Shown here: positions 2,554 through 34,504 of the stretch, one piece after another
Layout of the letters: every line of letters starts with the position of its first letter
Position numbering within the stretch: the stretch's first letter is position 1
Origin: Acholeplasmataceae bacterium
Lineage (GTDB): Bacteria; Bacillota; Negativicutes; Acidaminococcales; Acidaminococcaceae
Assembly (NCBI GenBank): GCA_012719555.1
Contig: JAAYAE010000007.1
Coordinates: 1-34,504 of the forward strand
Length of the DNA: 34,504 nucleotides
Direction: 5' to 3'
Notes under the pieces: model-generated
The model's database searches: none
What the model saw: the letters and a program-made list of their open reading frames with translations, nothing else
What the model was told of the DNA's origin: nothing
Translations under genes and position numbers: made by a program

Positions 2554-3777
2554 TTAGAAAGTGATGATAAGTTGAGACCACAAAGTTTTGTGTTTAGTAT
2601 CGGAAAGATCTTTATCCTTCAAATCGAAGTATTGAACGCCAGCTACCATGTTTTTAGCAACAGTGTAGTCAACGCCAACGCCGTAGCCTTTTAAGCCATA
2701 TTGTCCAAGATATGCACCGTTCATTGTGTGAGCGATAACAGTGGAAGCACCTTGGTTGTAATATTTAGCCCATGCACCAAAAGAACCAACTTTGTTAGCT
2801 TTAGCAGTACCATAAGCCAAGGAAATTACATAACCCTTGTTATCCATGTCAAAGTAATCAGTATAGTCGGAAGAACCCTTTAAGTACATAGCACCAATAG
2901 TGGTTTTTCCTGTAGTGTAGTTAGCACCCAAAGTATAAATCTTGTCGTCAGTGCCACCAAGAGTAGTTACTTCGTTAGCTTTTACATAGTTAGCTTCTAA
3001 AGCTACTTGGCCAACATTGCCGCCTAAACCAACGCGGTAGTATTTACCGGCAGCTGGAGTAGTAGAAGTGCTATCATAAGTAGCAGCAGAGGAAGACATT
3101 TTACCAACTTCAGCAGTAACTTTTAGTGTTTTGCCGAAATCTAATTTAACAGCGTCAACGCGGTTATCATAAACGTTACCTTCTGCAATAAAGCCTTCAA
3201 AACGACCGGCAGTTACGCCAACTTGACCAATTTTGCCTGTTAAATAAGCGCGTTGGAAACGAGTAGCTTCATCGCCAGTGCCATTGTTAAGGTTTTGTTC
3301 GTTTTGCAACATGGAAACATAACGGAAGTTGTCATTAACTTCGCCGGACAAGAACAAACGAGTACGGATCTTAGAATAGGAAGCAGGTTTAGGATCAGTG
3401 CTGCCAGCGTAATCAACATAAGTAGCACGAATGTTACCGGTGATTTTTACGTTGTCAGAATTTTTTTCCAACTTAGCTACGCGAACGCCCAAGTTGTCTA
3501 ATTCGTCAGCGAATTCGCCAACCAATTTGTCGTCAGAACCGATAGCGCCTTTTGCCAAAGCTTTAGCTACGATTTGAGCCATTTCATAACGAGTCATTAA
3601 GTTGTTGCCTTTGAAAGTGCCGTCAGGATAACCATCAACTACGCCTGCTGCAGCCAATTTAGCTACGGAAGCATAAGCCCAATGACCAGCCGGTACATCA
3701 GAGAATGGGTTTGCTGCAAAAGCTGTAGCGCTAACGCCAAGAGCCATTGCCATTGCTAATACTAATGTCTTTTTCAT
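2554..3777 (-). CDS. ompM: OmpM-type outer-membrane porin with N-terminal SLH (peptidoglycan-tethering) domain
   Basis: Signal peptide MKKTLVLAMAMALGVSATAFA. SLH domain FSDVPAGHWAYASVAKLAAAGVVDGYPDGTFKGNNLMTRYEMAQIVAKAL. Short coiled coil EFADELDNLGVRVAKLEKN, then about 300 aa with a beta-barrel pattern ending in the aromatic beta-signal LIITF. GGGGGA SD precedes ATG3777; the track start 3843 is a GTG with no SD. Confidence 0.9.
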   Translation of the reverse strand: MKKTLVLAMAMALGVSATAFAANPFSDVPAGHWAYASVAKLAAAGVVDGYPDGTFKGNNLMTRYEMAQIVAKALAKGAIGSDDKLVGEFADELDNLGVRVAKLEKNSDNVKITGNIRATYVDYAGSTDPKPASYSKIRTRLFLSGEVNDNFRYVSMLQNEQNLNNGTGDEATRFQRAYLTGKIGQVGVTAGRFEGFIAEGNVYDNRVDAVKLDFGKTLKVTAEVGKMSSSAATYDSTSTTPAAGKYYRVGLGGNVGQVALEANYVKANEVTTLGGTDDKIYTLGANYTTGKTTIGAMYLKGSSDYTDYFDMDNKGYVISLAYGTAKANKVGSFGAWAKYYNQGASTVIAHTMNGAYLGQYGLKGYGVGVDYTVAKNMVAGVQYFDLKDKDLSDTKHKTLWSQLIITF

Positions 3778-3948
3778 GAAAATATCCCCCTTAAGGAATT
3801 TTATTTTTACAATGCCATAGGGGAGGTCAGCTTCATGTTCCACCGACTATTCGTGCGAGTAACCTTGTTTCCTCTACTCCTAGTTGGAATCACATTCCAC
3901 GTCTCTCTCTGCGGGCACTATAAAGCAATATTAATAATTTACATGGTT

Positions 3949-4000: not shown

Positions 4001-4411
4001 TTAATCGATTTTTTTCAAATATCTTCTCACTAAAACTACTGCAGCTAGTCCATCCAAATTAACTGGAGGTACCTGCATACCCAAAGGGAATAATTTGCGC
4101 AGTCCCTTGGGTGGATTTAATTGCCAATAAAGCACCCTTGCTTCCTCAGTACTATGAGCTTCATCTATCAGAACAATTTCAACGGAAGGTAAGAGCTCGT
4201 GCAAGGCAGCCTTCATAGCCGCTGCAGTCGTGCCATTACCCATAACGCAAAGGCTAACCTCTTGCTGCCCCAAAAATTCTTCCAGGGCCCCTGTGAAATC
4301 CGCCATCAGTAAAACCTCTGTATTTTTTATTTCGCCGCCTGCTGTCACCAAGGCAACTCCGGTTTTGCTGCTGCCGGGATCAACACCCAAAATCAGCTCT
4401 TTGCTATTCAT
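4001..4411 (-). CDS. YqgF/RuvX-like RNase H-fold protein (putative resolvase-like nuclease), 136 aa
   Basis: N-terminal ILGVDPGSSKTGVALV, central IVLIDEAHSTEEAR and C-terminal NLDGLAAVVLVRRYL are colinear with the RuvX/YqgF motifs (GxDxG..iGvA, DErlTT.eA, D..AA..IL). GGAGGTGA SD. The start overlaps the upstream gene's stop by 8 nt. Confidence 0.6.
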   Translation of the reverse strand: MNSKELILGVDPGSSKTGVALVTAGGEIKNTEVLLMADFTGALEEFLGQQEVSLCVMGNGTTAAAMKAALHELLPSVEIVLIDEAHSTEEARVLYWQLNPPKGLRKLFPLGMQVPPVNLDGLAAVVLVRRYLKKID

Positions 4412-5566
4412 AGCCGCTCACCTCCAGCTTCAATAAAACAGGTCCGGCAACGGCAATATCCCCCTTAGCTTTAGCCGTAATCTCTACCTTGCCCCCAAAC
4501 TTGCGAATAGAAGCGCTAACAATTTCCATTTCAGCAGCATCAATAGCTCCCACCTTGCCTGTTAAAGGGTCCGGCACCACGCCTTGAGCTACCGCAGCTT
4601 TATTAACATCTTTCAAAAAGGCCAATAGTGCCATTTCCACTTGCTGAGAATCTACATCTACGTTAATTTTTTGGCTCAAAATTTCTGCATTATTAGCATA
4701 TACTTTATTGTTGGGTACCATTTCCAAACGGCTGACAGCCATTTCACCGGACAAAATATTTCCTGCGGCGCTAACCCGGACATAAATATTCCCTTTACCT
4801 CTGCTAGAGCTCGCAAAGCACTCTTGACAGTCTCCTTAGACACCCAAAGAATTTGCGTATCTTCTTTGGCTCCTGTCCGTTCCAAAATATGTCCATTAGC
4901 CGCGGCCAAAAACACATCCATTTGTTTTTGATTCTCTTCCGTACTAAGGCCGGCCTTTAGTACACTGGCATAAAGAATTTCTCCGGAACGAAAAACTACA
5001 TCACCCTCACGCATAGCCGTCATGTTTTCCCGCAACTTCTGGGTCGCTGTTTCTAAAGAGCTTACTTCTCCCTTTAGTTTATCCCTAGACGCTTGCAGTT
5101 TATCCATTTGGTTTTGGGCCTGATTTAATTTCTCCTCTGCCGCTTGGTAACTGCTTTCTAATTCTGCTACTTGGTGTTGAGCCTCTTCTTTTTGCCGTGT
5201 CGCCACAGCCAAATCCACAGAGGATTGCTTAATTTGTTTATCCAAATCTGCTACCTTAACTTTTTGAACTTCTAGTTCTCGTAGAATATCTTTTTTATCT
5301 TTATTTAAAGTTACTATCTCTGTCTTTATTTTTTCCATACCAAAAAGTGCCGTACGCACGCTGGCAGAAGATACCATTAAGATTCCCATGGTAGCCGCAG
5401 CTACGGCAATGCCGGTAATAATAGTCATAAGGATAGAAGTATAATGGGGCCTTAGCCCAAAAATAGTCAGCCTCTTTTTGCCAATTTTACTCCCTAGCTT
5501 GTCACCCAAAAATGCAATAGCTCCGCCCATAATTGCTATTATTAAAATTAACTGTGCTCCAAACAT
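4404..5566 (-). pseudogene. DUF3084-family membrane/coiled-coil protein, reading frame broken by an apparent 1-nt deletion near 4791-4797 (ORF pieces 4676-5566 and 4404-4754)
   Basis: N-terminus AFLGDKLGSKIGKKRLTIFGLRPHYTSILMTIITG matches the DUF3084 signature as I remember it from cyanobacterial proteins (GDRLG..VGK.RLSLF.LRPR.TA). After ...ALRALAEVKG the -1 frame continues cleanly as NIYVRVSAAGNILSGEMAVSRLEM... to the stop at 4404. Restoring one A or G in gaggtaAAGGGaat gives a 388-codon ORF. AGGAGGTGAGG SD precedes ATG5566. Confidence 0.65.
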
Positions 5567-5610: not shown

Positions 5611-6699
5611 CTACTGATCTTTTTTCCACATGAGCCACAAACCAAAAGCACCACAAAGAGCATTGGGAACCAAGGCCGCTATAATAGGCGGCAAGGCGCC
5701 TCCGTTGCCTAATCCTGTCATGAAAGTCATAACAGAATAGTAAACAAAAATAATAACTACGCTAATGCCCAAACCCATAGAAGTCCCTGTCCTTTGTCCC
5801 TGCATGCCTAGCGGCACCCCAATAAGGGCGAAAAAGAAACTAGCCAAAGGAATAGAAAATCGCATATACATTTCCATTACATATTTGCTTGTAGGCATAT
5901 ACTGCCTTTCAAGAATACCAATGTATGTTTTTAATTCACCAATAGTCATTTGTTCAGGGGACTTTTGGTCTAGGGTAATAGCCGTGGGTGTGGCCGCAAT
6001 CGGCAATACTTGTTTATCAAAAGTCATATAGCGGTTAACCCCTGCTGCGCCCGTTAAATCAGTGATACTGCCACCTTCCATAATCCAAGTTCCATTTATC
6101 CACTTGGCCATAGGTGTCTTTTGAATACGAGCTAATTTGCCATCTTGAAATTCCTCAATGGTAATATCTTGAAGAACACCCTGCTCTTCATCAAAAGTGC
6201 GAGCATAAGTTAAACGATCAAGCTTATCATTTTTAATGGTTTTAATAACAATGTGGTCCTGAGTCTTCGGTTTAGTGTCATGTTTTATTTCATAATCTAT
6301 AATACGAGCATACTCGGTTTTAGCCGGTGGCACTACTTTTTCTGCCCAAATAACCGAGAACATACTAACAACAAAGCCTGCTATTAGTATAGGTGCCGCA
6401 ATACGCTTAAAACTAATGCCACCGGACCGCATAGCCGTTATTTCACTGCTCCCTGAAAGCTTGTCCATAGTTAACAAAGAAGCTAAGAGCATAGACATAG
6501 GAAAAGTGTAGTTAATGACTTCCGGCATGAGGCAAAAGAACAGCCGAATCAAAGAAGATGCGGAAGCTCCATATTCGGTTAAATATTGAGCCACCCTGAA
6601 GAGGAAGGAACTAGCCACAAAAATCGTGGAAAAAGCTGCCACACCAAAACAGAAAGGTCCTAACATTTGTTTAAGGATATATTTGTCTAAAATGCGCAT
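5611..6699 (-). CDS. LPS export ABC transporter permease, LptF/LptG (YjgP/YjgQ) family; single copy in this cluster
   Basis: 362 aa. Typical N-terminus MRILDKYILKQMLGPF, three TMs, a large periplasmic beta-jellyroll insert, three C-terminal TMs. GAGGAAG SD precedes ATG6699, 13 nt after the lptB stop. Confidence 0.9.
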   Translation of the reverse strand: MRILDKYILKQMLGPFCFGVAAFSTIFVASSFLFRVAQYLTEYGASASSLIRLFFCLMPEVINYTFPMSMLLASLLTMDKLSGSSEITAMRSGGISFKRIAAPILIAGFVVSMFSVIWAEKVVPPAKTEYARIIDYEIKHDTKPKTQDHIVIKTIKNDKLDRLTYARTFDEEQGVLQDITIEEFQDGKLARIQKTPMAKWINGTWIMEGGSITDLTGAAGVNRYMTFDKQVLPIAATPTAITLDQKSPEQMTIGELKTYIGILERQYMPTSKYVMEMYMRFSIPLASFFFALIGVPLGMQGQRTGTSMGLGISVVIIFVYYSVMTFMTGLGNGGALPPIIAALVPNALCGAFGLWLMWKKDQ

Positions 6700-6712: not shown

Positions 6713-7432
6713 TCACATTTTGAATTTTTCGCCCAAATAAAATTTTCGGGCTGTGGAATCATTGGCAACCATTTCGCTGTCACCTGCTACTAAAATCTCA
6801 CCATTGTTTAAAATGTAAGCATTATCCACAATGCTCAAAGTTTCCCGTACATTATGGTCTGTAATAAGTACCCCAATACCTCGTTGTGCCAAATGGGCAA
6901 CCATAGTCTGAATATCGGCAACCGCGATAGGGTCAATACCGGCAAAAGGCTCGTCCAACAAAATAAACGCAGGGTCCGTGGCTAATGATCTGGCTATTTC
7001 TACCCGCCTTCTCTCCCCACCGGAAAGTGCCGAACCCAAACTATTTCTAATATGTTCAATATGAAATTCTGCAATTAACTCTTGCATTTTTGCCAGACGT
7101 TTTTCGTGAGAAGGCTCTACCGCTTCTAAAATTGCCAACAAATTCTCTTCTACTGTCAAACTGCGAAAAACAGACGCTTCCTGGGGTAAATACCCAATAC
7201 CGGCCAAAGCTCTTTTGTACATGGGCATATGAGTAATATCTTTATCATCAATAAGTACTTGCCCAGCATCAGGTTTTTCCAAACCAACAATCATATAAAA
7301 GGTAGTTGTTTTCCCGGCACCGTTAGGGCCTAAAAGTCCTACAATACTACCCTGTTCCACCTCAATAGACACGTTATCTACCACTTTACGTGAGCCATAT
7401 TGTTTTACCAAGTTATTTGCTTGTATTTTCAA
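6713..7432 (-). CDS. lptB: LPS export ABC transporter ATP-binding protein LptB
   Basis: Walker [10 protein letters not shown], signature [13 protein letters not shown], Walker [13 protein letters not shown]. The N-terminus [17 protein letters not shown] is colinear with E. coli LptB. TTG start with AAAGGAG SD 6 nt upstream. Confidence 0.93.
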
Positions 7433-7481: not shown

Positions 7482-8228
7482 CTAGGCCTCTATATCTTGT
7501 GGTTTTGTTGTTTGAGGCTTAGGTAAGTATACCATTTTAACTTTACCATCTGCTTGTGCAATGCTACCACCTGCACCCCTTAGGGTCAAGCTTTGACCGG
7601 AAACGGTATTTCCGTCTTGGGTTGCGGTGGCATTTCCTATAAGCTCTATAGTGCCGTCATCCTCATTTGTGTTATAAATAGCCTTATCTCCGCTGGCAGT
7701 TAGCTTGCGCACACTGCTATTAATACGTACATTGCCATTGGCATTTGCTATGCCTGCATTCATGTCATAATTAATATATTCCGCATCTAAGCTACTCTGT
7801 CCATTGTCCATTGTAAGTTTGGCCCAATCCCCCACTGTTTCCATGTATTTCCTGCTTTGAAAATATTCCACTTGGTCAGCACGTAACGTCTTATCTTGCT
7901 TAGTTAAAACTGCGTTTCCTATAGCGGTGAGTTGGTCTCCACCGGTATGAATAACTAAAGTATTGCAAGTAATTCTCGCTTCACCTTGAACTCCCTCTAC
8001 GCCGCCTGTTAATTTACCTGCTTCTGACTTTGTATTATATTCGGCATTAGCCGCTCTAACCGTACCTTCATTATTAGTAAGAACCACATTGCCCTTCGCT
8101 ACTGTTTGACTGCTGCGAAAATCATATTCAACTGTATCGCCGGCAACACTGGAAGCGGCATATGTTACCCCCGCTAACGACAAACAAAGCAGAAAGCTTA
8201 AAATTGCGCCTATATTTTTTCTTTTCAT
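7482..8228 (-). CDS. lptA: periplasmic LptA/OstA-N family LPS transport protein (elongated, 248 aa)
   Basis: Signal peptide ...LSLAGVTYA, then repeated OstA-like beta-jellyroll strands (GNVVLTNNEGTVRAANAEY, GNAVLTKQDKTLRADQVEY, GNVRINSSVRKLTASGDKAIY). Its ATG overlaps the lptC TGA (ATGA). Confidence 0.85.
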   Translation of the reverse strand: MKRKNIGAILSFLLCLSLAGVTYAASSVAGDTVEYDFRSSQTVAKGNVVLTNNEGTVRAANAEYNTKSEAGKLTGGVEGVQGEARITCNTLVIHTGGDQLTAIGNAVLTKQDKTLRADQVEYFQSRKYMETVGDWAKLTMDNGQSSLDAEYINYDMNAGIANANGNVRINSSVRKLTASGDKAIYNTNEDDGTIELIGNATATQDGNTVSGQSLTLRGAGGSIAQADGKVKMVYLPKPQTTKPQDIEA

Positions 8229-8776
8229 TGTTCTACCCCTTTCTGCACGAGGGCTTCACCCTCAAGTTTTAAATGCTCCAGCACTGTTTCCATGGTTGCC
8301 TTTTGCGCCGTGGCCACAATATCGTCTTTTGTTATCTTAACATTACCTTCAGCCACTATCTTTTCATCCTTACTGAACCAACTGAGCTTATCAGCATTTA
8401 GCTCTCCACCTGTACTAAATACACCTTTGGGGTGCCCTTCAAGTGTAATAGTTTTAGTCTTCATATCTATTTCACCGGTTTCAGATTCAATTATTATATT
8501 ACTGCCATCTGCTTGATAAAATTTTCCCTTGACGCCTTTGAGCACATTTACATCACGCGCTTTGTCATATATCAGTGAAGCCAAAGTCAGCTCCCATACC
8601 TTTTTTCCATTATCTTCTTCATGCAAAGAAGTATTCTTTAGCTCATGCGGCGCCACTTCCGGTCCCTTGGTTACAGGTTCTTTGACACCGCCTGTACCGG
8701 ACATAAGCCAGCCAAAAATTACTGCCATAATAATCACGGCCCCTGTAATGTAGAGTATGGTTTTTTTGTTTTTCAT
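8225..8776 (-). CDS. lptC: LptC, membrane-anchored LPS transport protein
   Basis: N-terminal TM ILYITGAVIIMAVIFGWL followed by a beta-jellyroll-like domain, positioned immediately upstream of lptA-lptB. GGAAGGG SD precedes ATG8776; the longer track ORF (8866) has no SD. Confidence 0.8.
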   Translation of the reverse strand: MKNKKTILYITGAVIIMAVIFGWLMSGTGGVKEPVTKGPEVAPHELKNTSLHEEDNGKKVWELTLASLIYDKARDVNVLKGVKGKFYQADGSNIIIESETGEIDMKTKTITLEGHPKGVFSTGGELNADKLSWFSKDEKIVAEGNVKITKDDIVATAQKATMETVLEHLKLEGEALVQKGVEQ

Positions 8777-8825
8777 TGCAAACCCTTCCTTATCAGAGGA
8801 ACGTGCATTTCGTTCCCGGCATTTT

Positions 8826-9728
8826 CTAAAGTTTGGAATTGCCCTCCGGCTGTTCCTCACCTTCATACGGTGTATTCCAACGGTGTTGGAACCAAATCCA
8901 GTTATCAGGATATTCTTTAATTACTTCCTCTACAATCTTGGTCATTTTCAAGGTTACGTTATAATCATCGGCTTTTCTATCACCGGTATCTTCATAGTAA
9001 AGAGGATCTTTCACAATAGCCAAATGGCCATAATCCCCAGGTTTGCGCACAATAAAGATAGGGATAATAGGTGCGTTAAACTTTCTGGCAAAATATGCCG
9101 GACCTGCAGGCGTTGAAGCCATTTTACCCAAAAACGGTACCAAAATGCCATTATAACCGCCATCCTGGTCAGCAATAAGGCCTAAAAGTCTGCCTTTTTT
9201 CATTGCCCGTGCGCAGCCCAAAATTTCTCCGGTTCCCCGGGAAAAAATTTCTTGCCCTGCTCCACGGCGCAGTTGATTCATAAAATCACTGTAAACTCTA
9301 TTCGGCTGCGGCTTTTCCACCGCACTTATGGGGAATCCATTCAGCGCTAATGCAGCACCCAACCATTCCCAATTATCCATGTGACAAGCAAGCATGACGA
9401 CACCGTGTCCCTGTTTCATTGCCTCCCACAAAACATCAGGTCTGTCAAAATTCACCAATCCTCTAATATTATCTTTATTTAGCGCCGGCATGTACATAAT
9501 CTCTAAAAAGGTCATCCCTAAGTTAAGAAAAAGTTTATGAACATGTTTTTGAGCTTCTTCGGCACTAATTTCTAAATGCTCTTGCATGGTTTCTTCTGCC
9601 CTAATACGTTGTTTTTTGGCAATATACCAATACAATTTACCACAACAACGGCCTAATCTTACCACAAATTTATAGGGTAAGGCGGAAATAATATTGCTGA
9701 TTGTTTTAAGTACATAATAAAGCCACAT
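8826..9728 (-). CDS. lipid A late (secondary) acyltransferase, LpxL/LpxM (HtrB/MsbB) family, copy 1
   Basis: 300 aa with an N-terminal hydrophobic anchor, the HX4E acyltransferase motif in ACHMDNWEW, and C-terminal EYPDNWIWFQHRW typical of this family. Its ATG overlaps the kdsC TAA (TAATG). Confidence 0.85.
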   Translation of the reverse strand: MWLYYVLKTISNIISALPYKFVVRLGRCCGKLYWYIAKKQRIRAEETMQEHLEISAEEAQKHVHKLFLNLGMTFLEIMYMPALNKDNIRGLVNFDRPDVLWEAMKQGHGVVMLACHMDNWEWLGAALALNGFPISAVEKPQPNRVYSDFMNQLRRGAGQEIFSRGTGEILGCARAMKKGRLLGLIADQDGGYNGILVPFLGKMASTPAGPAYFARKFNAPIIPIFIVRKPGDYGHLAIVKDPLYYEDTGDRKADDYNVTLKMTKIVEEVIKEYPDNWIWFQHRWNTPYEGEEQPEGNSKL

Positions 9729-10273
9729 TACTGGTTATCTCCCTGTCCCTTTGCAGTATAGTCAGCTACTATTTTATCCCAAAGTCCTCGAGAACGTAAA
9801 ATTATTTCGATAATTTCTCTTACTGCGCCGAAGCCTCCTGCATTTTGGGTTATATAGTGTGCATTTTTTTTTACATCAATAGTCGCATTAAATGGTGCCA
9901 GTGCCAGCCCTGCTACACCCATTGCCGGTAAATCATTAAGGTCGTCTCCCATAAAAGCCACTTGTTCTAACTCCAGATTATTTTCTCTCGCTAATTGCTC
10001 CAAAGCCGCTTTTTTGTCTGTCACTCTTTCACAAACAAGGGTAATCCCTAATTCTTTAGCCCGGCGCAGAAGTATCTCACTATGCCTTCCGGTAATAAGC
10101 GCTATCGTTAAATCATTGCGCAAGGCCAAAGTTATACCTAATCCATCTTGCGCATCAAAACGCTTACAAAGCTCACCTTTATTGCCAATGATAATGCCGC
10201 CATCAGTAAGCACTCCATCTACGTCCAATACCAACATTTTGATATCCTGAAAATTTATGTTAGGATTTGTCAT
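9728..10273 (-). CDS. kdsC: Kdo-8-phosphate phosphatase KdsC (HAD-IIIA)
   Basis: HAD motif I LVLDVDGVLTDG, motif IV GDDLNDLP, and the size (181 aa) typical of KdsC. It overlaps the kdsD stop by 1 nt. Confidence 0.92.
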   Translation of the reverse strand: MTNPNINFQDIKMLVLDVDGVLTDGGIIIGNKGELCKRFDAQDGLGITLALRNDLTIALITGRHSEILLRRAKELGITLVCERVTDKKAALEQLARENNLELEQVAFMGDDLNDLPAMGVAGLALAPFNATIDVKKNAHYITQNAGGFGAVREIIEIILRSRGLWDKIVADYTAKGQGDNQ

Positions 10274-11238
10274 TATATAACCCCCTGATGAACCAAGTCC
10301 GTCATATGCAGCAAGCCAATAACATGTTTTTCTGCATCAATAACCGGTAATACCGTAATAGGACGCGGTTTATTACTTTCCATTATATGCAAGGCTTCTG
10401 CTGCTAATTTATCTTTGGTAATAGTTTTGGGAGACTTAGTCATCAATTCAACCACTGGTCTAGTTAAGAAATCAAAACCCTTGCTAAGACCGCGACGAAT
10501 GTCACCATCGGTAAGTACCCCAATCATTTTGTTATCATTGTCGATAACAGAAACAGCCCCAAGGCCTTTATCAGTAATAACAAAAAGGGCATCTTCTACC
10601 AGCATTTCTCCCGTTACAACAGGATTTTCATCCCCTTTATGCATAATGTTCTCCACGGTTAATAACAATTTGCGCCCCAAAGAACCTCCTGGGTGAAATA
10701 CAGCAAATTGATCTGCCGTAAATTTGCGGGCAGAAAGAAGCTCTATGGCCAAAGCATCACCATAAGCTAAAGCCGCAGTAGTACTGGAAGTAGGAGCTAA
10801 ACCCAAAGGACAGGCCTCTCTTGTTACGCCTACATTTAGAACTACATCTGCCTGTCGTCCCAATGTACACTCGCTCTTCCCTACCATAGCAATAATCTTT
10901 GCTCCAATACGTCGCAAAGAAGGAAGTATCTGCAGCACTTCCCCCGTCTCTCCGCTATTAGACAAGGCAATGACAACATCATCTGCCGTAACCATACCTA
11001 AATCTCCATGAATACCCTCTGCAGGATGCAGATAAAAAGACGGCGTACCTGTACTAGCCAAAGTAGCAGCTAACTTCCGGCCGATAATACCTGATTTGCC
11101 CATACCCGTAATAACGGTACGGCCATTACACGCTAAAATCATACTAACAGCTGCTGCAAAATTTTCATCTACCCGAGGTATAAGCTCCATAATAGCCTCT
11201 GCCTCCATTTGTAATACTGCTTTAGCTCGTTCTAGCAA
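10273..11238 (-). CDS. kdsD: arabinose-5-phosphate isomerase KdsD (SIS domain plus two CBS domains)
   Basis: [42 protein letters not shown] is nearly colinear with E. coli KdsD, with C-terminal CBS repeats. TTG start at 11238 with GAAGGTG SD 6 nt upstream. Confidence 0.92.
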
Positions 11239-18372: not shown

Positions 18373-18380
18373 CAAAATAT

Positions 18381-26145: not shown

Positions 26146-27423
26146 TTACAAATTTCCTACTATGCGAAGGTAGGTCTTATCTTTAGAATAAACATATTCT
26201 GTACTTAAAAATTCATGAATTCGATAACGAATACCAAACTCATTACCGCCAGGGCCACTAAAATGTTCTATTCTTATTTTCCATTTCGGAGAAAATTTGT
26301 ATTCAAATTTATAATTATTTTCCCCGGCTGAAATTCTTCTGGAATAACCTATAGAAATATTACCCAATTTACGCATATAGCCAGGGGAAAAATCCCACTC
26401 CGTGGGATTAACAATAACAGAAGCTTCCGCAAAAATTTCATCAGCCCCGGAAATATATTTACCAATATGAGCGACTCCCGAAATATTATGCCCATCTCTT
26501 CCAACATCGCCGTAACCTTCAAACCAAACTTTATAACGCGGTGAATTCAGTTGTGCCTCTACTATGGTGTCAGCTCCCGGAATAATGGTTAGCGTAGGTA
26601 CAATACCGTAAAGTTTAACCGCCTTTTGCTGCCTTAAAACCTTCAAAAGCCTTTCTCGAACGCTTTCCAGATTATCATTAATATACTGTATTGGTAAACC
26701 CCTAAGATTATTCACTTCCCTGCCGAAAATATTTTTGGTCTCTAAAAAAAGGATATTAGGCATGTTATCTGACATTATTTCCAAATGCACATTTTGCACT
26801 AATTTTCCCACAGGGTAAATTACAACTTGTACAACAGCCCTATCTTCCTGCCTGCTTAAATCAATAGCTGCTCTAAAATTAGGCAACGCAACAGCCACAT
26901 CTGCCCTAATCATCTGTCTTAAAACGCCGCCGGCCCAATCAGTTGCATCTACAGAAGCCCCAAGAACCGTGTTCCTTATTTGCGTTTGTAGCTGGGGCAT
27001 TTTTTTCAAAAGTTCTCCAGCCATATTATCATCAACATCAGAAAAACGAATATCTACCTGAACGTCCCCAATAACTTTACCCCAAGGTGACAAAGCTATA
27101 TTGACTTGCGTGGTCGTGCCTAAGACTAAACTTACTTTTTCCACTTGATAACCGGTTAACACCCTGTCGGTTACCTCTTGCAGCAAATTTGAATAATCTG
27201 ATTTTGACTTTTCAATTTGCTCAATTTCCCTGTTCATTAATAACTGTTCTGCAACTACCTGTATACTAGCAGTCATTCTCGCCAGCAAAGTATCACCGGC
27301 GTGATGACCTGCATCTTGAATCTTTACTTGTACCTGCTCAATCGGAGCAGCAAATACTATTGTTGGTAAGAACATGAGAACAAAGAGAAGCCCGAAAAGG
27401 CTATAGCAACTTTTTATCCTCAC
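26146..27423 (-). CDS. secreted protein of unknown function (425 aa) directly downstream of bamA; C-terminal segment resembles the TamB (DUF490) tail
   Basis: GTG start with GGGGGAGGGAAG SD. Signal peptide LLFVLMFLPTIVFA/AP. No family I can name. Tail IGYSRRISAGENNYKFEYKFSPKWKIRIEHFSGPGGNEFGIRYRIHEF aligns with the TamB end IGYSTSFDRQYHSVFAEYNITDKLNLNFSKDEKNRRWYGIQYQMSF. Confidence 0.6.
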   Translation of the reverse strand: MRIKSCYSLFGLLFVLMFLPTIVFAAPIEQVQVKIQDAGHHAGDTLLARMTASIQVVAEQLLMNREIEQIEKSKSDYSNLLQEVTDRVLTGYQVEKVSLVLGTTTQVNIALSPWGKVIGDVQVDIRFSDVDDNMAGELLKKMPQLQTQIRNTVLGASVDATDWAGGVLRQMIRADVAVALPNFRAAIDLSRQEDRAVVQVVIYPVGKLVQNVHLEIMSDNMPNILFLETKNIFGREVNNLRGLPIQYINDNLESVRERLLKVLRQQKAVKLYGIVPTLTIIPGADTIVEAQLNSPRYKVWFEGYGDVGRDGHNISGVAHIGKYISGADEIFAEASVIVNPTEWDFSPGYMRKLGNISIGYSRRISAGENNYKFEYKFSPKWKIRIEHFSGPGGNEFGIRYRIHEFLSTEYVYSKDKTYLRIVGNL

Positions 27424-27449: not shown

Positions 27450-29381
27450 TTAGAATTGTCCTCCAAAACTAAAGTGGAATCTTCCTCCATCGCCACCATT
27501 TAGCGGAATACCATAGTCTAAGCGCAATGGACCAAGCGGAGAATTAATACGTAAGCCAATACCGGCACTATACTTCATTAATCCCAATTCAAAATTATTT
27601 TCGCCATAATCTTTACTCCAAGCATAGCCCGCATCAGTAAATACCACTCCTTGTACTTTTTTAACTAAAGGAATTCTGTATTCTACACTGCCACGGAGCA
27701 TGCTGTTACCCTTAAATATATCATCGCGGTACCCACGAAGAGTATCACTGCCACCTACAGAAAATCTTTGACTTAGAGGCATATCCCCATTGGCAAAACC
27801 AACGCCTAAGTTCACTGCAATAACATTATTTACACCTTGACGATAGTAGTAACGGTAATCAGCACTATATTTTTGAAAACTAAAATCACCTCCAAAAGAA
27901 GCTACTTCCACAGAATAGTTATTTCGTTTACCTTCGTGTGGATCATAGATATTATCTCTACTATCCAATGTACGAGCAAAAATCACGCTGCGGGTAAGGC
28001 CAAAATTCTGAGCCTGTCTTTCAGCAATAACGTCAGCACTTTGCTGTGTGCCATCAAGATCGTATCCTTCAAAATACTGGTACTTATAGCCGCTAACTGG
28101 TTTAACATAGCTATCATCCCTATTTTTTAGTGTTACAGAATTTGTAATGAACTCATTATCTGTTACACGGCTAAAGGATATTTCTTCACCGCGTCTTTTC
28201 TTATAATAACGAGCAATTTCGTCACTATCACGATTATAATCAACATATTCATTAGTCATATTGTAAATTGTAATACCCATGGTAGTTTGTTTGTTGTCTA
28301 TCCAAGGACGCACATAGGATAACTCGTAGTTTTTGTTATAGACGTCATCGCCGCCAAACTCCCAGCGCAAATTAACCTTATCACCGGTGCCACGGAAATT
28401 CTTATCTCCAATAGAAATCATTCCCAAAATACCATCTGCATCACTGTAGCCGGCACCGATACCAAATGTTCCTGTACTCATTTCTGATACAGTAATTTCT
28501 ACAACCACTGTATTTTGTTGCTGGCCTGGATTTAATTTTATGTTAACATCTTCAAAATAACCTAGATTATAAATGCGTTGCATACTGCGACGGGCTGCCT
28601 TCGCGTTAAAAGGCTGTCCCTTCTTTAGCTTCATTTCTCTGGTAATAACATAATCTTTAGTCTTCGTATTGCCTTTAATTTTGAAATCTTCAACAACGCC
28701 TTCATTAATAAGTATGGCTAAATGACCATCAGGTAATAAACGAATATCGTTGACGCGAGCTAAAATATAGCCCTGCTTACTATATTCGCTTTCAATTCTG
28801 CGTGCCCCTTCATTAACTTTTTTAGTATTAAGCACTTGACCTTTAGGAATATCCACCATTTTTCTTATTTCGGCAGTAGAAATTTTAGTATTACCTTCTA
28901 CATCTAATTGTACAAAAGCTGGGTTTTCCATAATCGTGTAATCAATTTGGACACCTTCAGGTACCTCTCTGAAACTAGGCGTAATTTCATAAAATAATCC
29001 TGTTTCATATAGTGAGCGCATATCTGCCTCAAAGCCATCAGACGTAAATGTCGTCCCCGGCTTCATTTTAAGAACTTCTTTGATTTTCTCTTGATCCAAA
29101 TTATCAATACCAATTAAACTTACTTTGGCAACTAGGCTGCCCACATAAGGTGCCGCTTTAGCTGCATTATCTGCAGCTTTACTTTGCTCCTTTTGTAAGT
29201 TGGCCTCAGGCATCACGGATTTAGAAAGAGGTTCCACTTTCAGCTTTCCTTCAGCAGCTTCAACTTTCGGTTTGTGTTCTAACGGTTGGCTAACGGATAC
29301 CTCAGCGTACACAGGTGAGGTTAAAAGCAAGGATGTCAATATACCTGCGGCTAATGGCTGCCAAATTTTTCTTTTTTTCAT
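27450..29381 (-). CDS. bamA: BamA/Omp85 outer-membrane protein insertase, about 3 POTRA domains plus 16-strand barrel
   Basis: Signal peptide ...LLLTSPVYA. Lys/Glu/Ala-rich linker of about 60 aa. Three POTRA-like units begin at VAKVSLIGIDNL, FVQLDVEGNTKIS and VEDFKIKGNTKTKD. The barrel begins TGTFGIGAGYS, has the loop-6-like RGY in SDTLRGYRD, and ends in the beta-signal RFHFSFGGQF. GGGGG SD precedes ATG29381. Confidence 0.92.
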   Translation of the reverse strand: MKKRKIWQPLAAGILTSLLLTSPVYAEVSVSQPLEHKPKVEAAEGKLKVEPLSKSVMPEANLQKEQSKAADNAAKAAPYVGSLVAKVSLIGIDNLDQEKIKEVLKMKPGTTFTSDGFEADMRSLYETGLFYEITPSFREVPEGVQIDYTIMENPAFVQLDVEGNTKISTAEIRKMVDIPKGQVLNTKKVNEGARRIESEYSKQGYILARVNDIRLLPDGHLAILINEGVVEDFKIKGNTKTKDYVITREMKLKKGQPFNAKAARRSMQRIYNLGYFEDVNIKLNPGQQQNTVVVEITVSEMSTGTFGIGAGYSDADGILGMISIGDKNFRGTGDKVNLRWEFGGDDVYNKNYELSYVRPWIDNKQTTMGITIYNMTNEYVDYNRDSDEIARYYKKRRGEEISFSRVTDNEFITNSVTLKNRDDSYVKPVSGYKYQYFEGYDLDGTQQSADVIAERQAQNFGLTRSVIFARTLDSRDNIYDPHEGKRNNYSVEVASFGGDFSFQKYSADYRYYYRQGVNNVIAVNLGVGFANGDMPLSQRFSVGGSDTLRGYRDDIFKGNSMLRGSVEYRIPLVKKVQGVVFTDAGYAWSKDYGENNFELGLMKYSAGIGLRINSPLGPLRLDYGIPLNGGDGGRFHFSFGGQF

Positions 29382-29391: not shown

Positions 29392-29940
29392 CTAATTTGA
29401 TTCACTTAATCTCTTGCGTGCTACGCGCACTAAATTGCGCATTTCCTGCGTTTCTGCCAACGGCGTATTCTGCGTTACTTTTGTCTTTGAAACATTTTGC
29501 TCTTCTGATAAAGATTCAGGTTCTTTTATTTTGTATTCTGCACCGCTGCCATTTTTAGGCATAGCGTCAACATTTGTAGCTACAACTTCCGCACTTTTAG
29601 GTGATATCAGAGGTTGTGGTTGTGTGATTTGTACGACATTTATCACAGGCTTTACTTGTGTGGCAGCAAGCTCGCTTTGGTTCATTGTGCTTTTAGCCCA
29701 AAACCAACTGCCCACTCCTACCAAAACAAGAATGCCGGCAATACCTATGGCCAAGGTTTGTCTTGCCCAAAAACTTTTAGATCCACGTTTTTCCCGCAAA
29801 AACTGCATCTGAGCTTCTGCTAACATTAAATCCAATTCTCCCCGTGCACCATTGTGAGCCTTAAAGCTTTCCTCAGCATTTTTTAAATTACTTTGCAAAG
29901 TTTTTATCTGGTCACAAATACCTTTTCTTTGCCTTACCAT
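29392..29940 (-). CDS. single-pass membrane protein (182 aa), possible anti-sigma/regulatory partner of the upstream sigma factor
   Basis: Helical N-terminus of about 60 aa, TM TLAIGIAGILVLVGVGSWFWA, then a low-complexity C-terminal region of about 100 aa. No recognisable domain and no ZAS motif. The stop is 10 nt before the bamA start. Confidence 0.55.
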   Translation of the reverse strand: MVRQRKGICDQIKTLQSNLKNAEESFKAHNGARGELDLMLAEAQMQFLREKRGSKSFWARQTLAIGIAGILVLVGVGSWFWAKSTMNQSELAATQVKPVINVVQITQPQPLISPKSAEVVATNVDAMPKNGSGAEYKIKEPESLSEEQNVSKTKVTQNTPLAETQEMRNLVRVARKRLSESN

Positions 29941-30083: not shown

Positions 30084-30725
30084 TTATATTTTCTTCAAAT
30101 CTGCCATTAACCGTGACAACATACCTCGCACACGTCGCACACCTTTTTTTTGCAGCCGATAAACATGCCCGGTGGTCACATTAATTGCAGCTGCAATATC
30201 TATTGGTCGTTTATCTTCCAAATAAATGGCAGATAGTACTAGTTGTTCTTTATCAGGCAGCCTCTCAATAGCCGCTAAAACTCTTCCTGAAAGAAAATTT
30301 CGCTCCGCCTGCTCAGCAGGAGATGTCTCCTGTGAGATCAACATATCTGACCAAGAAATTCCACTGCCGGCAATGGCCTCACTATCTAAAGATAATGTGC
30401 CGCCACCATATTCTGAATTTAAATAATCTATCATCCTGCCCTTTATACGATGTAAAGCAAAAATACTGAAAGCAACTCCCTTGGTATAATCAAAGCGTTC
30501 CGCTGCTTCCAAAAGCCCAACAGTCCCTTCTTGAATTAGTTCCAATACCTGTTCTGAAGGAAGTTTAAATGATAAGGCCGTCTTAAAAACAAGGGGCTGG
30601 TAGGAACGTATAAGCAAATTATGTGCATCTGTATCTCCGTTTCCGCTCTTTTCCCAAAGAGAAATCTCTTCCTCGCGAGAGAGTAATTTTATTTTTCCCA
30701 ATTCTTCTAAATATTTGCTAAGCAT
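30084..30725 (-). CDS. sigma-70 family RNA polymerase sigma factor (213 aa, group-3-like, not ECF-like)
   Basis: Region 1.2/2: YLEELGKIKLLSREEEISLW, LIRSYQPLVFKTA, LIQEGTVGLLEAAERFDYTKGVAFSIFALHRIKG. Region 4 HTH: LPDKEQLVLSAIYLEDKRPIDIAAAINVTTGHVYRLQKKGVRRVR. GGAGG SD; it starts 21 nt after the tamB stop. Confidence 0.85.
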   Translation of the reverse strand: MLSKYLEELGKIKLLSREEEISLWEKSGNGDTDAHNLLIRSYQPLVFKTALSFKLPSEQVLELIQEGTVGLLEAAERFDYTKGVAFSIFALHRIKGRMIDYLNSEYGGGTLSLDSEAIAGSGISWSDMLISQETSPAEQAERNFLSGRVLAAIERLPDKEQLVLSAIYLEDKRPIDIAAAINVTTGHVYRLQKKGVRRVRGMLSRLMADLKKI

Positions 30726-30746: not shown

Positions 30747-33700
30747 TTAAAATGACATCTGATATTGAATTCCATACCATCTTCGATTTTTTTCATCTTT
30801 GGAAAAATTCAGATTGAGTTTATCCGTAATATTATACTCCGCGAACACACTGTGGTATTGTCTATCAAAACTAGTTGAATATCCTATCATGGCATTTTTC
30901 ATAAAATGCTTGCTGACTAATACATTATACTGGTTTCTGTCCTCATTAGTAAAGTTTTCTGCTTTCAAGGCATCAATATCAAACCCAATACTTGACCGTA
31001 CATTGCCATTATAAATTCTAAATTCGTCAAAAGCAAAGGTTTGTTTTACAAAATCTTCTATATCTCCCATAAATGTCATCTGCAACCCTGCGTCCAAAAG
31101 CCCTTGAACATTGGCATTGTTCACACTGCTGTTAACATTGTCATCCGTAGTTTTTAAGGTCAACATGCGTAACAATTCTGTCTGACTCTTTGCGGGATTA
31201 GAACTCAATGAAATATTCAAATCATCTACTGAGCCATCAGCTTTTGCGGTAATATTATAACGACTAAATCTACTGGTAGCCTCAAAGCTTACAGAAGGCA
31301 TTACACTTCCAGGTATTGGCCACGCCACTGAAGCGCGTTTAATGTTAAAAGGTGTTCTAATATAACTTATAGTTCCTTTGGTAGCATCTATACTGCCATC
31401 CACGTTTGTGAATTTTGTGCTTCCTGTAATATGAAGTCCCCCTGCAATCCATAAGTCATACATGTATTTATTGCGCAAATGAATGCTAGGTCCCAGCTCT
31501 ACCGTTACATCAAGACCTATATTAGAATCACTTTGTCCTATATCCGGAATTCCGGGAATATTCAGCAATACATCATCTAATCTTATTGTGGAAGTCAAGT
31601 GCGGCCTGTTACGTTTTTGTGTAACTTCTCCGTGGGCGTTAATTGTACCATTAAAATAAGTCGATACAACTTGAACCTTTTTAGCATCAAAATTTAATAA
31701 ATATGGTGTATTGGAAGCATCATTAAAAGCAAAGTTACCATTGGCTACAAAAAGCCCCTCTTTACCAATATTACTGGATAATTCTTTTAATGTTACTTGC
31801 TTACCGTTAAAAGCAACTTCCATTTTAAAATTGTCCAGCAAAGTAGACATTTCCTTAATTTTAATTGTTCCTTTATCAACAAACACAGAACCATTAATCC
31901 TAGGATCTTCCAAAGTACCAGTAATATCTACATTTCCCTTAGTATCTCCCACCGCCCAATCAATCCATTTAGTAAGAGAAGGCAAAATAGCCAAGTTAGC
32001 ATTATCCAATCTAACGCTTAAATCCATCTGGGCATCTGGGTTTCTACGATTATCTTTAGCTCTTAGCAAATCTTCTGGGAAAGTACCATAGGCACTGACT
32101 TTATAAACATCTTTTTCCAAAAGTAATTGTTCCAGCTTGAACATGTCATCCCGCAATGTCACCATACCATATAAATTATCAAAGGAAACGCCGGCTACCG
32201 TTCCCTGCGTTACCTGTAAAGAAACGTTGCCATTAGGATTATCCAGACTCCCGGTCAACTGTGCAGTAAAGTCCATTTGTCCGCCAAGCTCAACAGGTTT
32301 TGCCATAAAAGCCGTTAATATTGCGGCATTCACCTTATTGCAGCCAATTTCCAGATCAATTTTGCGCCCTTTAAAATCTACCTTACCTTGGGCAGCCATA
32401 AATCCCCCTGTTTCTTCTTCTGCTTTCATATTCATTATCTGCAAAAGTCCTCTTTTGTAGAATAAATCAAAAGCAATATCCTTAAAAGGAACACTGCGAA
32501 TCTTACTTTTGTTAACTTTGCCTGTTATGCTGATCCCACTGCCTTTGCCATCTTTATTGATAACAATTTTACCATCTAATAATCCTTCCATAGCAAATTC
32601 TTCTTTGGCCATCTTAAGTAATGATTTTACATTACCACCTGTAACATTTAACGTCCCTTGAAGTAATCCTTCCCCTAAATCCAACAGCAAGGATGCTTCA
32701 TAATCTCCACCGGCCTTTTGATGGAAGGTACCATTTAATTTATTTCGTGTTCCGCCGCTACTTTCCAAAAAGAAAGCAAGGCCTGTTAATTCTTCCCCAT
32801 TTATTTTAACAGAGTTTGACGTTAGCGCACCGGCAAACATGGGTAAGGCCCTAGTTCCCTTTACCCTACCGCTAAAATCCACCATGCCCTCAACATCCGC
32901 ATAGTTATTAATCTGCGGTATCCGTGCTAAATGTATTTGCCTTGCATCCATTACAAAATCCAAGTTGCCTGCAGCGTCCATGTTGCCATCCAAATCAATG
33001 TTGGTAGTCAAGGTTTTGATTTTGAACCCTTTAAGAGTCAAAACACCAGCATTGTAACTGTATTCACCGGCAACATCATCTACCAAAAATTTCTTACAGC
33101 TGCCATCCCAAGCGTGCATTTTTCCAACAATATTTAAATTATTAATCGCTCCGTAAACGTGGGCTTCATTGGTAAAATTACCTGTTATTTTTGCCGTAGG
33201 TGCAAAATAGTCGGAAATAGGATCTATGCGCACATGCTTTGTCGTAAGGTTAATATCTACTACTGTCTGATCTCCGCTAAAATCAATAAAACCATCAACC
33301 AAGTGCCTACCCTGCTCCATATTCAATTGCAATTGCTTTATCGTCAGCACATTGTCTTTAAAAGATAGAAAACCATTAGCTTCTTTAAATTTTTGTCCGA
33401 AAATTTCCCCTGCGCCTAAAGCTGCCATACCTTCAATATTAAATGAATGTACCGGACCATAGACAGTGAACTCCCCTGATAAAGTACCATAACCATCTTT
33501 ATTTGCTAGTTGCAAGAACGGACTAATAGGGAATTTTGAAATTCTTGCCTTAGCATCAATAATGCCATTTTTCACCGAACCTTTAGCCACCATAGCCCCA
33601 CCATCATCACTAAAGCCGCTAAAATTATTGATAATAACTGATTCTTTATTTATGTCTACATCTACATCTAACTTTTTAAATACGGTTCCACGCCATGTTA

Positions 33701-34504
33701 AGGTCAGCAAGTTGGCAAAAGTACTTAACTTTATGCTTTCGTTAGCCAAAGACCCCTCTAGAGCAATATTACCATCAGCAACAATACTCTCATTAGGTAA
33801 TTGTGCCAAAGGCGCTAAATCAACCTGTTTCATGTCTACATTAGCTAAAATTCTGCTTTTCTTTTGATCATATGTTGCGGCAATAGAAAGCTTGCCTCCT
33901 GAATACTGGGCAGTAGCATCGGAAATTATTATTTTATCATCTTGCATAGACAAGGGAACACTAACATTAGTCAAATTTTCTCCGGCTATTACCAAATCAG
34001 GAGCAAATATATTGCCTTTTACTAAAATTTTATCTTTCGTACCATTTAAAACCAAATTACCGCTAACAGCTCCTGCTACCGGAGAAGCAGGAATAATCTT
34101 AGATACATCAAATTTTTCCAGCTGAATTGCTAAATCCTCAGCAGCAGGATTTTCTCTATTGGTAAAATCTATATTACCATTTATCTCAGCTTTTTCACCT
34201 TTTACTGTAACAGAAAGTTTTTCAGCCGTAATAGCCATTTCATGGAAATTAATCTTGCCATCTAAGGTTACAGGAATCCTGTCATTACCATTAATAATTG
34301 TTCCTGAGGCTTGGGAAAATTTACCGCTGCCGGACATACCCACAGCACGACCATCGTTATGCCACAAAAGATTCATGTCTTTAATATCTCCTGACATATT
34401 GCTTACGGGAATGTAATGTTCAATAAAAGCAGTAAATTGGTCCAATCCAAAGGACTCGGTTTTAATCGCTAATGTTCCGGCTCTGTCTTTATTTATTTTA
34501 CCTA
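30747..34504 (-). CDS. tamB: TamB-like translocation and assembly module protein (AsmA-like/DUF490), 5' partial; the ORF remains open to the window edge
   Basis: More than 1250 aa of repetitive beta-rich sequence with no TM in the visible part. The DUF490-like C-terminal tail ends YGIQYQMSF. The frame upstream of the track start (TTG34445) reads on without a stop through 34504 (..GKINKDRAGTLAIKTESFG-LDQF..). Confidence 0.88.
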   Translation of the reverse strand, partial: GKINKDRAGTLAIKTESFGLDQFTAFIEHYIPVSNMSGDIKDMNLLWHNDGRAVGMSGSGKFSQASGTIINGNDRIPVTLDGKINFHEMAITAEKLSVTVKGEKAEINGNIDFTNRENPAAEDLAIQLEKFDVSKIIPASPVAGAVSGNLVLNGTKDKILVKGNIFAPDLVIAGENLTNVSVPLSMQDDKIIISDATAQYSGGKLSIAATYDQKKSRILANVDMKQVDLAPLAQLPNESIVADGNIALEGSLANESIKLSTFANLLTLTWRGTVFKKLDVDVDINKESVIINNFSGFSDDGGAMVAKGSVKNGIIDAKARISKFPISPFLQLANKDGYGTLSGEFTVYGPVHSFNIEGMAALGAGEIFGQKFKEANGFLSFKDNVLTIKQLQLNMEQGRHLVDGFIDFSGDQTVVDINLTTKHVRIDPISDYFAPTAKITGNFTNEAHVYGAINNLNIVGKMHAWDGSCKKFLVDDVAGEYSYNAGVLTLKGFKIKTLTTNIDLDGNMDAAGNLDFVMDARQIHLARIPQINNYADVEGMVDFSGRVKGTRALPMFAGALTSNSVKINGEELTGLAFFLESSGGTRNKLNGTFHQKAGGDYEASLLLDLGEGLLQGTLNVTGGNVKSLLKMAKEEFAMEGLLDGKIVINKDGKGSGISITGKVNKSKIRSVPFKDIAFDLFYKRGLLQIMNMKAEEETGGFMAAQGKVDFKGRKIDLEIGCNKVNAAILTAFMAKPVELGGQMDFTAQLTGSLDNPNGNVSLQVTQGTVAGVSFDNLYGMVTLRDDMFKLEQLLLEKDVYKVSAYGTFPEDLLRAKDNRRNPDAQMDLSVRLDNANLAILPSLTKWIDWAVGDTKGNVDITGTLEDPRINGSVFVDKGTIKIKEMSTLLDNFKMEVAFNGKQVTLKELSSNIGKEGLFVANGNFAFNDASNTPYLLNFDAKKVQVVSTYFNGTINAHGEVTQKRNRPHLTSTIRLDDVLLNIPGIPDIGQSDSNIGLDVTVELGPSIHLRNKYMYDLWIAGGLHITGSTKFTNVDGSIDATKGTISYIRTPFNIKRASVAWPIPGSVMPSVSFEATSRFSRYNITAKADGSVDDLNISLSSNPAKSQTELLRMLTLKTTDDNVNSSVNNANVQGLLDAGLQMTFMGDIEDFVKQTFAFDEFRIYNGNVRSSIGFDIDALKAENFTNEDRNQYNVLVSKHFMKNAMIGYSTSFDRQYHSVFAEYNITDKLNLNFSKDEKNRRWYGIQYQMSF

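Follow-up and report, generated by a model that had tools for sequence, protein, structure and literature searches.

Diderm members of the Firmicutes build their outer membrane (OM) and its lipopolysaccharide (LPS) from a large locus that Antunes et al. found conserved across Negativicutes and Halanaerobiales (eLife 2016, PMC5007114). In that description the locus comprises lpxACDIBK, waaM, waaA and kdsABCD, with fabZ beside lpxC, and msbA; LpxI in the place of LpxH; an lpt block of four genes, in which LptF/G is single and two proteins have an OstA domain; tamB-bamA, up to three skp genes, ompM, and two conserved genes of unknown function (COG0816 and DUF3084). Neither LptD/E nor BamBCDE was found, O-antigen genes do not occur in the locus, and the supplementary table of the study already covers genomes of Acidaminococcus and Phascolarctobacterium. 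Here we compare with this locus a 34,504-bp stretch of DNA (contig JAAYAE010000007.1), called the window throughout. It almost certainly carries the chromosomal diderm cluster of a Negativicute, an uncultured species of the family Acidaminococcaceae, and the original prediction for this DNA had rightly named the 2016 paper as the one that describes such clusters.

Later work has filled in the surroundings of the locus. In Veillonella parvula lptD lies elsewhere in the genome, outside the cluster (PMC5491611, Poppleton 2017), and the gene is reported to be universal in Negativicutes (PMC13018214). The genes mlaEFD-tolC precede tamB in all Negativicutes (PMC10665443, Grasekamp 2023). Finally, a conserved operon sonB-bamA-sonA-skp1 was described in Acetonema longum and other Negativicutes, where SonA has three POTRA domains followed by a ten-stranded beta-barrel and SonB is a predicted OM lipoprotein (Beskrovnaya et al., Nat Commun 2026, PMC13018214).

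The complete lipid A and Kdo pathways lie in one run of genes

Open reading frames (ORFs) on the minus strand form an unbroken series of 30 between 2554 and 34445. A single frameshifted gene accounts for two of these ORFs (4676-5566 and 4404-4754), so that the series amounts to 29 genes, in line with the roughly 29 consecutive genes originally proposed. We scanned the window ORFs with the NCBIfam and Pfam profile hidden Markov models (HMMs), which assigned nearly all of those on the minus strand. The gene set matches the published locus point by point, including the COG0816 and DUF3084 genes; the differences are that the window comes from another, uncultured species and that its DUF3084 gene is frameshifted. 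Gene content and gene order, like the taxonomy below, are direct observations. All nine steps to Kdo2-lipid A (Kdo, 3-deoxy-D-manno-octulosonic acid) and the four steps of Kdo supply are encoded, with every HMM match inside 8826-24061, which bears out the earlier claim of a full pathway plus KdsA-D. The genes are as follows, with handles of the form L092 denoting related loci introduced in the next section but one.

8826..9728, minus strand: LpxL-type late acyltransferase 1 (NF006270 E 2.2e-37, below the equivalog cutoff; Pfam Lip_A_acyltrans in L092)
9728..10273, minus strand: KdsC, Kdo-8-phosphate phosphatase (TIGR01670, 152 bits against a 107-bit cutoff)
10273..11238, minus strand: KdsD, arabinose-5-phosphate isomerase, TTG start (TIGR00393, 332 bits against 204)
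11232..12062, minus strand: KdsA, Kdo-8-phosphate synthase (NF003543, 425 bits against 242)
12124..12861, minus strand: KdsB, CMP-Kdo synthetase (NF003952, 331 bits against 193)
12861..15392, minus strand: WaaA-LpxK fusion, 843 amino acids (aa) (NF004388 E 1e-102; TIGR00682, 198 bits)
15396..17135, minus strand: MsbA, lipid A flippase (TIGR02203, 604.9 bits against a 602-bit cutoff)
17132..18268, minus strand: LpxB, disaccharide synthase, GTG start, 378 aa (TIGR00215, 311 bits; 378 aa in L081 as well)
18381..19202, minus strand: LpxI, UDP-2,3-diacylglucosamine hydrolase, the alternative to LpxH (Pfam LpxI_N E 3e-37, LpxI_C E 2.7e-49)
19211..20035, minus strand: LpxA (NF003657, 360 bits against a 226-bit cutoff)
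20187..21482, minus strand: LpxC-FabZ fusion (NF009667, the bifunctional model, 451 bits)
21482..22387, minus strand: LpxL-type late acyltransferase 2 (NF006270 E 3e-41)
23033..24061, minus strand: LpxD (NF002060, 367 bits)

Two of these genes are fusions. In the first, residues 1-433 match the Kdo transferase and residues 479-813 the lipid A 4'-kinase, and a full-length match to the fused protein is found in most of the 80 related loci, a few being cut by short contigs. In the second, LpxC takes up residues 5-275 and FabZ residues 289-425; this fusion recurs in L001, L003, L004 and L042, the two are separate genes in Phascolarctobacterium faecium (L084) and in L088, and in other loci the match ends at the LpxC boundary. 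LpxH is absent as far as the window reaches, where both the LpxI_N and LpxI_C domains are present.

LPS transport, barrel assembly and the SLH-domain porin

The genes on either side of the lipid A block supply transport and OM assembly. The original prediction had named MsbA, LptB, LptF/G, LptC, LptA, BamA, TamB, three Skp proteins and OmpM, and the HMM scans returned a match for each, with TamB partial.

2554..3777, minus strand: OmpM, porin with an S-layer homology (SLH) domain (Pfam SLH PF00395 E 6.7e-14; Porin_4, 31.7 bits)
4001..4411, minus strand: YqgF/RuvX-like protein, COG0816 (Pfam RuvX E 1.7e-6, 28.8 bits against a 29.2-bit cutoff)
4404..5566, minus strand: DUF3084 membrane/coiled-coil protein, COG4372 (Pfam DUF3084, 98 bits)
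5611..6699, minus strand: single LptF/G permease, 362 aa from an internal ATG (Pfam LptF_LptG, 296 bits)
6713..7432, minus strand: LptB, LPS exporter ATPase, TTG start (TIGR04406, 369 bits against a 240-bit cutoff)
7482..8228, minus strand: LptA-like periplasmic OstA-domain protein (Pfam LptD_N E 3.9e-16; TIGR03002, 55 bits)
8225..8866, minus strand: LptC (TIGR04409, 53.8 bits against a 38-bit cutoff; Pfam LptC)
24178..24585, minus strand: Skp/OmpH chaperone, 135 aa (Pfam OmpH E 1.2e-9)
24605..25522, minus strand: long Skp/OmpH-like protein, 305 aa, TTG start (Pfam OmpH E 4e-7, 30.8 bits)
25581..26060, minus strand: Skp/OmpH chaperone, 159 aa, in the skp1 position of the published bamA operon (Pfam OmpH E 5.7e-17)
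27450..29381, minus strand: BamA, 643 aa (TIGR03303, 305 bits against a 297-bit cutoff; Pfam POTRA three times, and Omp85)
30747..34504, minus strand: TamB, its N-terminus lost at the window end (Pfam TamB, 144 bits)

OmpM consists of a signal peptide, an SLH domain, a coiled-coil stalk and a porin barrel (its longest ORF reaches 3843), and nearly its whole length can be aligned with 8BYS and 8BYM, the solved structures of V. parvula OmpM (E 6e-51). The SLH match settles in the affirmative the earlier suggestion that the porin begins with such a domain, through which, by homology, OmpM would link the OM to the peptidoglycan. One copy stands at the cluster end here, whereas V. parvula has three adjacent copies. 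The lpt block has the published four-gene form, with LptB, two OstA-domain proteins and one LptF/G that scores 219 bits with the NCBIfam LptG model and 159 bits with LptF and is likewise 362 aa long in L092. No window ORF matched an HMM for LptD or LptE, BamB-E, TamA, the Lol proteins or core or O-antigen glycosyltransferases, the same absences that had been noted before, and tamB-bamA and the three skp genes thus stand here without bamB-E. BamA is called at 643 aa in L081 as well; an exact-sequence look-up of the 651-aa BamA ORF, which is over-extended, gave no match.

The 305-aa Skp-like protein scores below its cutoff (30.8 against 32.4 bits) and has the same length in L081. A lipobox-like VSAC closes its signal peptide, and the 135-aa Skp has a weaker SFGC; such motifs are odd for a lineage reported to be without Lol and OM lipoproteins. 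TamB is 1442 aa long in full, with an N-terminal membrane anchor, in L081, and about 1250 of its residues lie inside the window. Two contigs from this organism, L081 and L082, match the window at 99.96-99.97% identity across 13.7-18.4 kb and carry a TolC-like OEP gene and mlaD directly upstream of tamB, so the cluster extends past position 34504; mlaE and mlaF are seen in the relatives L084, L085 and L090. The arrangement thus shares with the V. parvula diderm cluster the mlaEFD-tolC-tamB series before bamA as well as the LPS genes, the lpt genes and ompM.

One further gene is inserted between lpxD and an lpxL-type gene.

22407..23018, minus strand: small secreted YjbH-N-like protein, 203 aa (Pfam YjbH, 52.8 bits, residues 30-155)

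It matches the N-terminal part of the YjbH model only and is probably a small OM protein. The gene is present in L001, L003, L022, L073 and L088 and absent from L004, L024, L031, L042 and L080.

All related loci are of the Acidaminococcaceae type

To collect relatives, the WaaA-LpxK protein was searched against one genome per species, which gave 80 loci. All 80 are of the Acidaminococcaceae type, a family that a lineage look-up places in the Negativicutes (Bacillota), with WaaA-LpxK identities of 65-92%. The top match is a metagenome-assembled genome (MAG) of the Acidaminococcaceae (92%), Acidaminococcus follows at about 77-80% and Phascolarctobacterium at about 68-73%, and at the DNA level identity to the nearest species-representative genome is about 79%. 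When all window proteins were compared by tblastn, gene order proved collinear gene by gene in 11 loci; protein identity was 67-94% to the closest MAG and dropped in more distant genera. The earlier view that this is a cluster of the Negativicutes or Halanaerobiales and not one of a classical Gram-negative phylum had called for a taxonomic check, and it came through that check intact.

A few loci, in public MAGs, carry names that do not fit. L028, L035, L041, L055, L060, L073 and L077 are labelled Fusicatenibacter, Escherichia coli, Duodenibacillus, Bacteroidaceae, Ruminococcus or Acholeplasmataceae. Their gene order does not differ and their identities are comparable (about 70%), and they are probably mis-binned or contaminated bins. 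In two further loci, L015 (A. intestini) and L010 (A. hominis), the cluster is broken upstream of lpxB and the half with lpxI, lpxA, lpxC, lpxD and skp lies elsewhere or is displaced, which agrees with the two accession ranges in the table of PMC5007114.

Such non-Firmicute names, E. coli and Bacteroidaceae among them, could be taken to place the cluster in a classical Gram-negative phylum, or to mark it as an island recently transferred from one. All LPS producers have the individual enzymes, and the order skp-lpxD-fabZ-lpxA-lpxB is known in Proteobacteria too; E. coli shares the core order skp-lpxD-(lpxC/fabZ)-lpxA-lpxB beside bamA, and the same enzymology. E. coli differs in having LpxH, separate LptF and LptG, BamB-E, LptD/E, TamA, and Lpp and Pal in place of OmpM, and its genes are dispersed around the chromosome, with lpt, kds and waa in scattered operons (PMC5007114). 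The oddly named loci are MAG bins with Acidaminococcaceae gene order, most simply explained by mis-binning, and SLH-OmpM, LpxI, a single LptF/G, the YqgF-like and DUF3084 proteins, SonA and SonB are hallmarks of the Negativicutes locus. G+C content is uniform (37-43%) and the skew steady over the window, and the 80 of 80 loci of the Acidaminococcaceae type refute a classical-phylum origin in practice; we give it practically no credence. An origin in the Halanaerobiales, which have the conserved locus too (PMC5007114), is exceedingly improbable: no Halanaerobiales appear among the best 80 loci, whose identifiable names are Acidaminococcus, Phascolarctobacterium and Acidaminococcaceae, and the window has no lol genes, which Halanaerobiales carry, though elsewhere in the genome (PMC5007114).

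Several points weigh against assigning the window to the Acidaminococcaceae diderm cluster, or limit how far that assignment reaches. The biochemical roles are assigned by homology. The genes were read in the window only, with lptD and the rest of the genome beyond it. Both LpxL-type proteins, LptA, LpxI and one Skp fall under strict equivalog or gathering cutoffs. Matches to sigma-70 promoters and terminators are, overall, no more numerous than in shuffled sequence. Lastly, alignment shows the DUF3084 gene to be split by a 1-bp deletion near 4790-4802 into ORFs of 296 and 116 aa. The gene is intact, as one ORF of 387-390 aa, in L001, L024, L092, L094, L095 and L096, which include four metagenomic contigs with an LptB identical to that of the window, and an exact-sequence look-up of the truncated 296-aa product gave no match, the product being unique to this assembly; the frameshift marks either an error of the assembly or a strain-specific pseudogene. 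Both the DUF3084 gene and its YqgF-like neighbour are syntenic in relatives. Nothing contradicts the diderm-cluster assignment.

By homology to the Raetz and Lpt pathways of E. coli, the products of the cluster can be placed in one route. LpxA, LpxC, LpxD, LpxI, LpxB and LpxK would assemble lipid A at the inner membrane, while KdsD, KdsA, KdsC and KdsB would provide CMP-Kdo; WaaA would add Kdo and the two LpxL-type enzymes the late acyl chains. MsbA would then flip the product over the inner membrane, and a homodimeric LptF/G with LptB, LptC and LptA would carry it across the periplasm to an LptD encoded elsewhere. Skp chaperones, BamA, SonA and SonB would insert beta-barrel proteins, TamB would move phospholipid outward, and OmpM would tie the OM to the peptidoglycan via its SLH domain.

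The cluster is punctuated by candidate transcription boundaries

Since all 29 genes lie on one strand, and many adjacent genes overlap by 1-8 nucleotides (nt) or sit less than 25 nt apart, as translational coupling would have it, the run could be read as one giant operon with a single transcript. Promoter and terminator sites were used only if intergenic and only as hints; these are the ones at issue.

2504..2540, minus strand: intrinsic terminator after ompM (14-bp stem, 4-nt loop, U-run)
18351..18374, minus strand: terminator-like hairpin in the gap from lpxI to lpxB (10-bp stem and T-run; consensus match only)
24149-24166: hairpin and T-run in the gap from skp to lpxD (consensus match)
25553-25569: hairpin and T-run in the gap between two skp genes (consensus match)
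26139-26111, minus strand: promoter-like site upstream of the first skp, that for the 159-aa protein (TG-extended, matching at 11 of 12 positions)

The terminator after ompM folds with -25.6 kcal/mol (z -6.05 against 200 shuffles). The internal hairpin-plus-T-run sites lie in gaps of 58-223 nt, and they and the promoter-like site before skp speak against a single transcript, which we consider unlikely. The lpxI-lpxB hairpin is a possible boundary between transcription units. Together these hints suggest that the cluster consists of several units, which agrees with A. longum, where nine operons are predicted (PMC13018214).

Two other motifs were considered and set aside. The 9-mer GACTATATA occurs solely in the gaps upstream of lpxA and sonB (20073-20084 and 29972-29980; 3 matches against 0.29 expected), and its lpxA copy lies inside the perfect 12-bp palindrome GACTATATAGTC. 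As a conserved operator this palindrome fails, being missing from all related loci except a same-organism contig. A FliA/sigmaD promoter upstream of lpxA (TAAA-N15-GCCGATAA) was dropped for want of a -35 match, the comparison having been made by eye.

Proteins in the SonA and SonB positions flank BamA

Around bamA the window departs from V. parvula: a sigma factor gene and sonB lie between tamB and bamA, and sonA follows bamA. The 2016 paper neither names nor discusses these three genes (PMC5007114). Two of them recall the A. longum operon, with which the window shares the order of a small protein with a single transmembrane helix, bamA, a 425-aa protein and skp.

26146..27423, minus strand: SonA-type protein, 425 aa (by position and by AlphaFold2/Foldseek)
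29392..29940, minus strand: SonB-position protein, 182 aa (by its position upstream of bamA and by alignments)

Neither protein has a Pfam or NCBIfam match. For the SonA-type protein, AlphaFold2 with 24 homologues gave a model with pLDDT 87.5, in which a signal peptide and three beta-alpha-alpha-beta-beta units of the POTRA type precede 10 C-terminal strands; its best matches in the PDB are TamA and BamA (Foldseek, E 3.5e-12). A word-based search found 554 homologues, and the family has 241 representative clusters at 50% identity, some with as little as about 20% identity to the query; those of full length have about 410-450 aa, and none has a Pfam domain. We rejected the notion of a cryptic TamA: the similarity is local (TM-score of about 0.2) and the barrel has 10 strands as against 16, a shorter barrel for which a low global TM-score is expected. 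The predicted architecture is the same as that of A. longum SonA, the comparison being one of position and model and not of sequence (F7NM22, F7NM24), and the 425-aa gene thus fits SonA in modelled architecture and position.

The 182-aa gene, which ends 10 nt before bamA, fits SonB by position. Its product starts with about 55 charged, highly conserved residues, followed by a single hydrophobic helix (about residues 55-85), a linker that varies and, at the C-terminus, a short conserved helix; a model with pLDDT 58.5 places helices at 5-52, 55-85 and 161-181 (AlphaFold2). It has neither a lipobox nor a signal peptide, and it looks like a single-pass protein with its N-terminus inside. On these sequence features an N-in inner-membrane protein fits it better than the OM lipoprotein predicted for SonB in PMC13018214. 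Contigs of 164-282 kb carry these SonA and SonB sequences as well.

A conserved sigma factor gene accompanies sonB

Next to sonB, on the tamB side, stands the third gene.

30084..30725, minus strand: sigma-70-family sigma factor, 213 aa (Pfam Sigma70_r2, r4 and r1_2; TIGR02937, 87.8 bits)

No region 3 was detected in this protein, as in sigma factors of the extracytoplasmic function (ECF) type, and no equivalog model reached its cutoff. Seven independent contexts, that of the window's own organism (L081) and six more (L084, L085, L086, L088, L089 and L090), have the gene between tamB and sonB, and the order tamB-sigma-sonB-bamA-sonA is kept in, among others, Phascolarctobacterium faecium and contigs whose SonA is 32%, 28% and 23% identical. 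Published tables fit a joint presence of the three genes. In two Phascolarctobacterium genomes two accession numbers separate tamB from bamA and one separates bamA from skp, while in A. fermentans and A. intestini the accession numbers of tamB, bamA and skp are consecutive (PMC5007114); V. parvula TamB (Vpar_0526) and BamA (Vpar_0527) have adjacent locus tags (PMC5491611), and both SonA and SonB are reported to be lacking in V. parvula and A. fermentans (PMC13018214). Judging from few genomes and from accession and locus-tag order, sigma, sonB and sonA seem to occur as a set, all there or all missing. The same orders suggest that all three are absent from the locus in A. fermentans and A. intestini, and in V. 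parvula at least the two genes between tamB and bamA. The word "sigma" does not occur in the main text of PMC13018214 or in the text and tables of PMC5007114, and we found no mention of a sigma gene beside sonB in the searchable papers.

Tentatively, the sigma factor (30084-30725) and the SonB-position protein (29392-29940) might form a dedicated sigma/anti-sigma module that would sense OM assembly and control sonB-bamA-sonA-skp or a larger part of the cluster, although we regard this as doubtful. The layout is that of the ECF-like sigma/anti-sigma paradigm: after the sigma gene comes one for a membrane protein with a single transmembrane helix, a strongly conserved cytoplasmic helix at its N-terminus and a periplasmic part that varies. 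Against such a pairing, Pfam and NCBIfam recognise no anti-sigma domain in the SonB-position protein, its N-terminal domain is short, and the sigma-sonB gap varies from 23 to about 190 nt, so that the two genes are not coupled. The low-confidence model of the SonB-position protein carries no weight for or against an anti-sigma role.

Composition, start codons and flanking genes

The window has a G+C content of 40.0% and a steadily negative GC skew on the plus strand, so the apparent AT-richness of the original prediction holds to a moderate degree only. It had also spoken of frequent TTG and GTG starts, which did not survive closer annotation. When starts were judged by Shine-Dalgarno (SD) position and by the gene calls in same-species contigs, and over-extended ORFs were trimmed, about 5 of the 29 genes kept a TTG or GTG start (lptB, kdsD, the 305-aa skp, sonA and lpxB); among the GTG and TTG starts of the raw ORF list, those of OmpM, LptF/G and BamA are over-extensions and those of TamB and the frameshift fragment artefacts. 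As for strong SD sequences of the GGAGG type, most likely starts have an SD-like core of 4 nt or more ahead of them, and about 13 of these cores reach at least 5 nt. Scans of the window with Rfam and for tRNAs gave no match. Beyond the cluster end, two plus-strand genes point toward it.

12-1043, plus strand: transporter of the bile-acid/sodium-symporter family (PanS-like), outside the cluster
1194-2459, plus strand: NlpC/P60 peptidoglycan hydrolase with an SH3b domain and a signal peptide, outside the cluster

Significance

The window agrees with the published locus on every point, so we regard the original prediction as the correct recognition of a known locus. That locus has been on record since 2016 and the subject of later studies, and its occurrence here is ordinary: the window adds one more instance, from an uncultured Acidaminococcaceae species, confirming the annotation and leaving the concepts unchanged. 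In practical terms, the window offers a clean and almost complete reference for the cluster in this lineage. Wider importance could attach only to the conserved sigma gene beside sonB. If the doubtful pairing proposed above were true, the sigma/SonB module would count as a Terrabacterial equivalent of sigmaE/RseA, one that went unnoticed because it is missing from V. parvula, the model organism. The papers we found do not address the regulation of envelope biogenesis by such a pair; if it does regulate BamA-dependent assembly, it would offer a handle on how envelope biogenesis is controlled in diderm Firmicutes.

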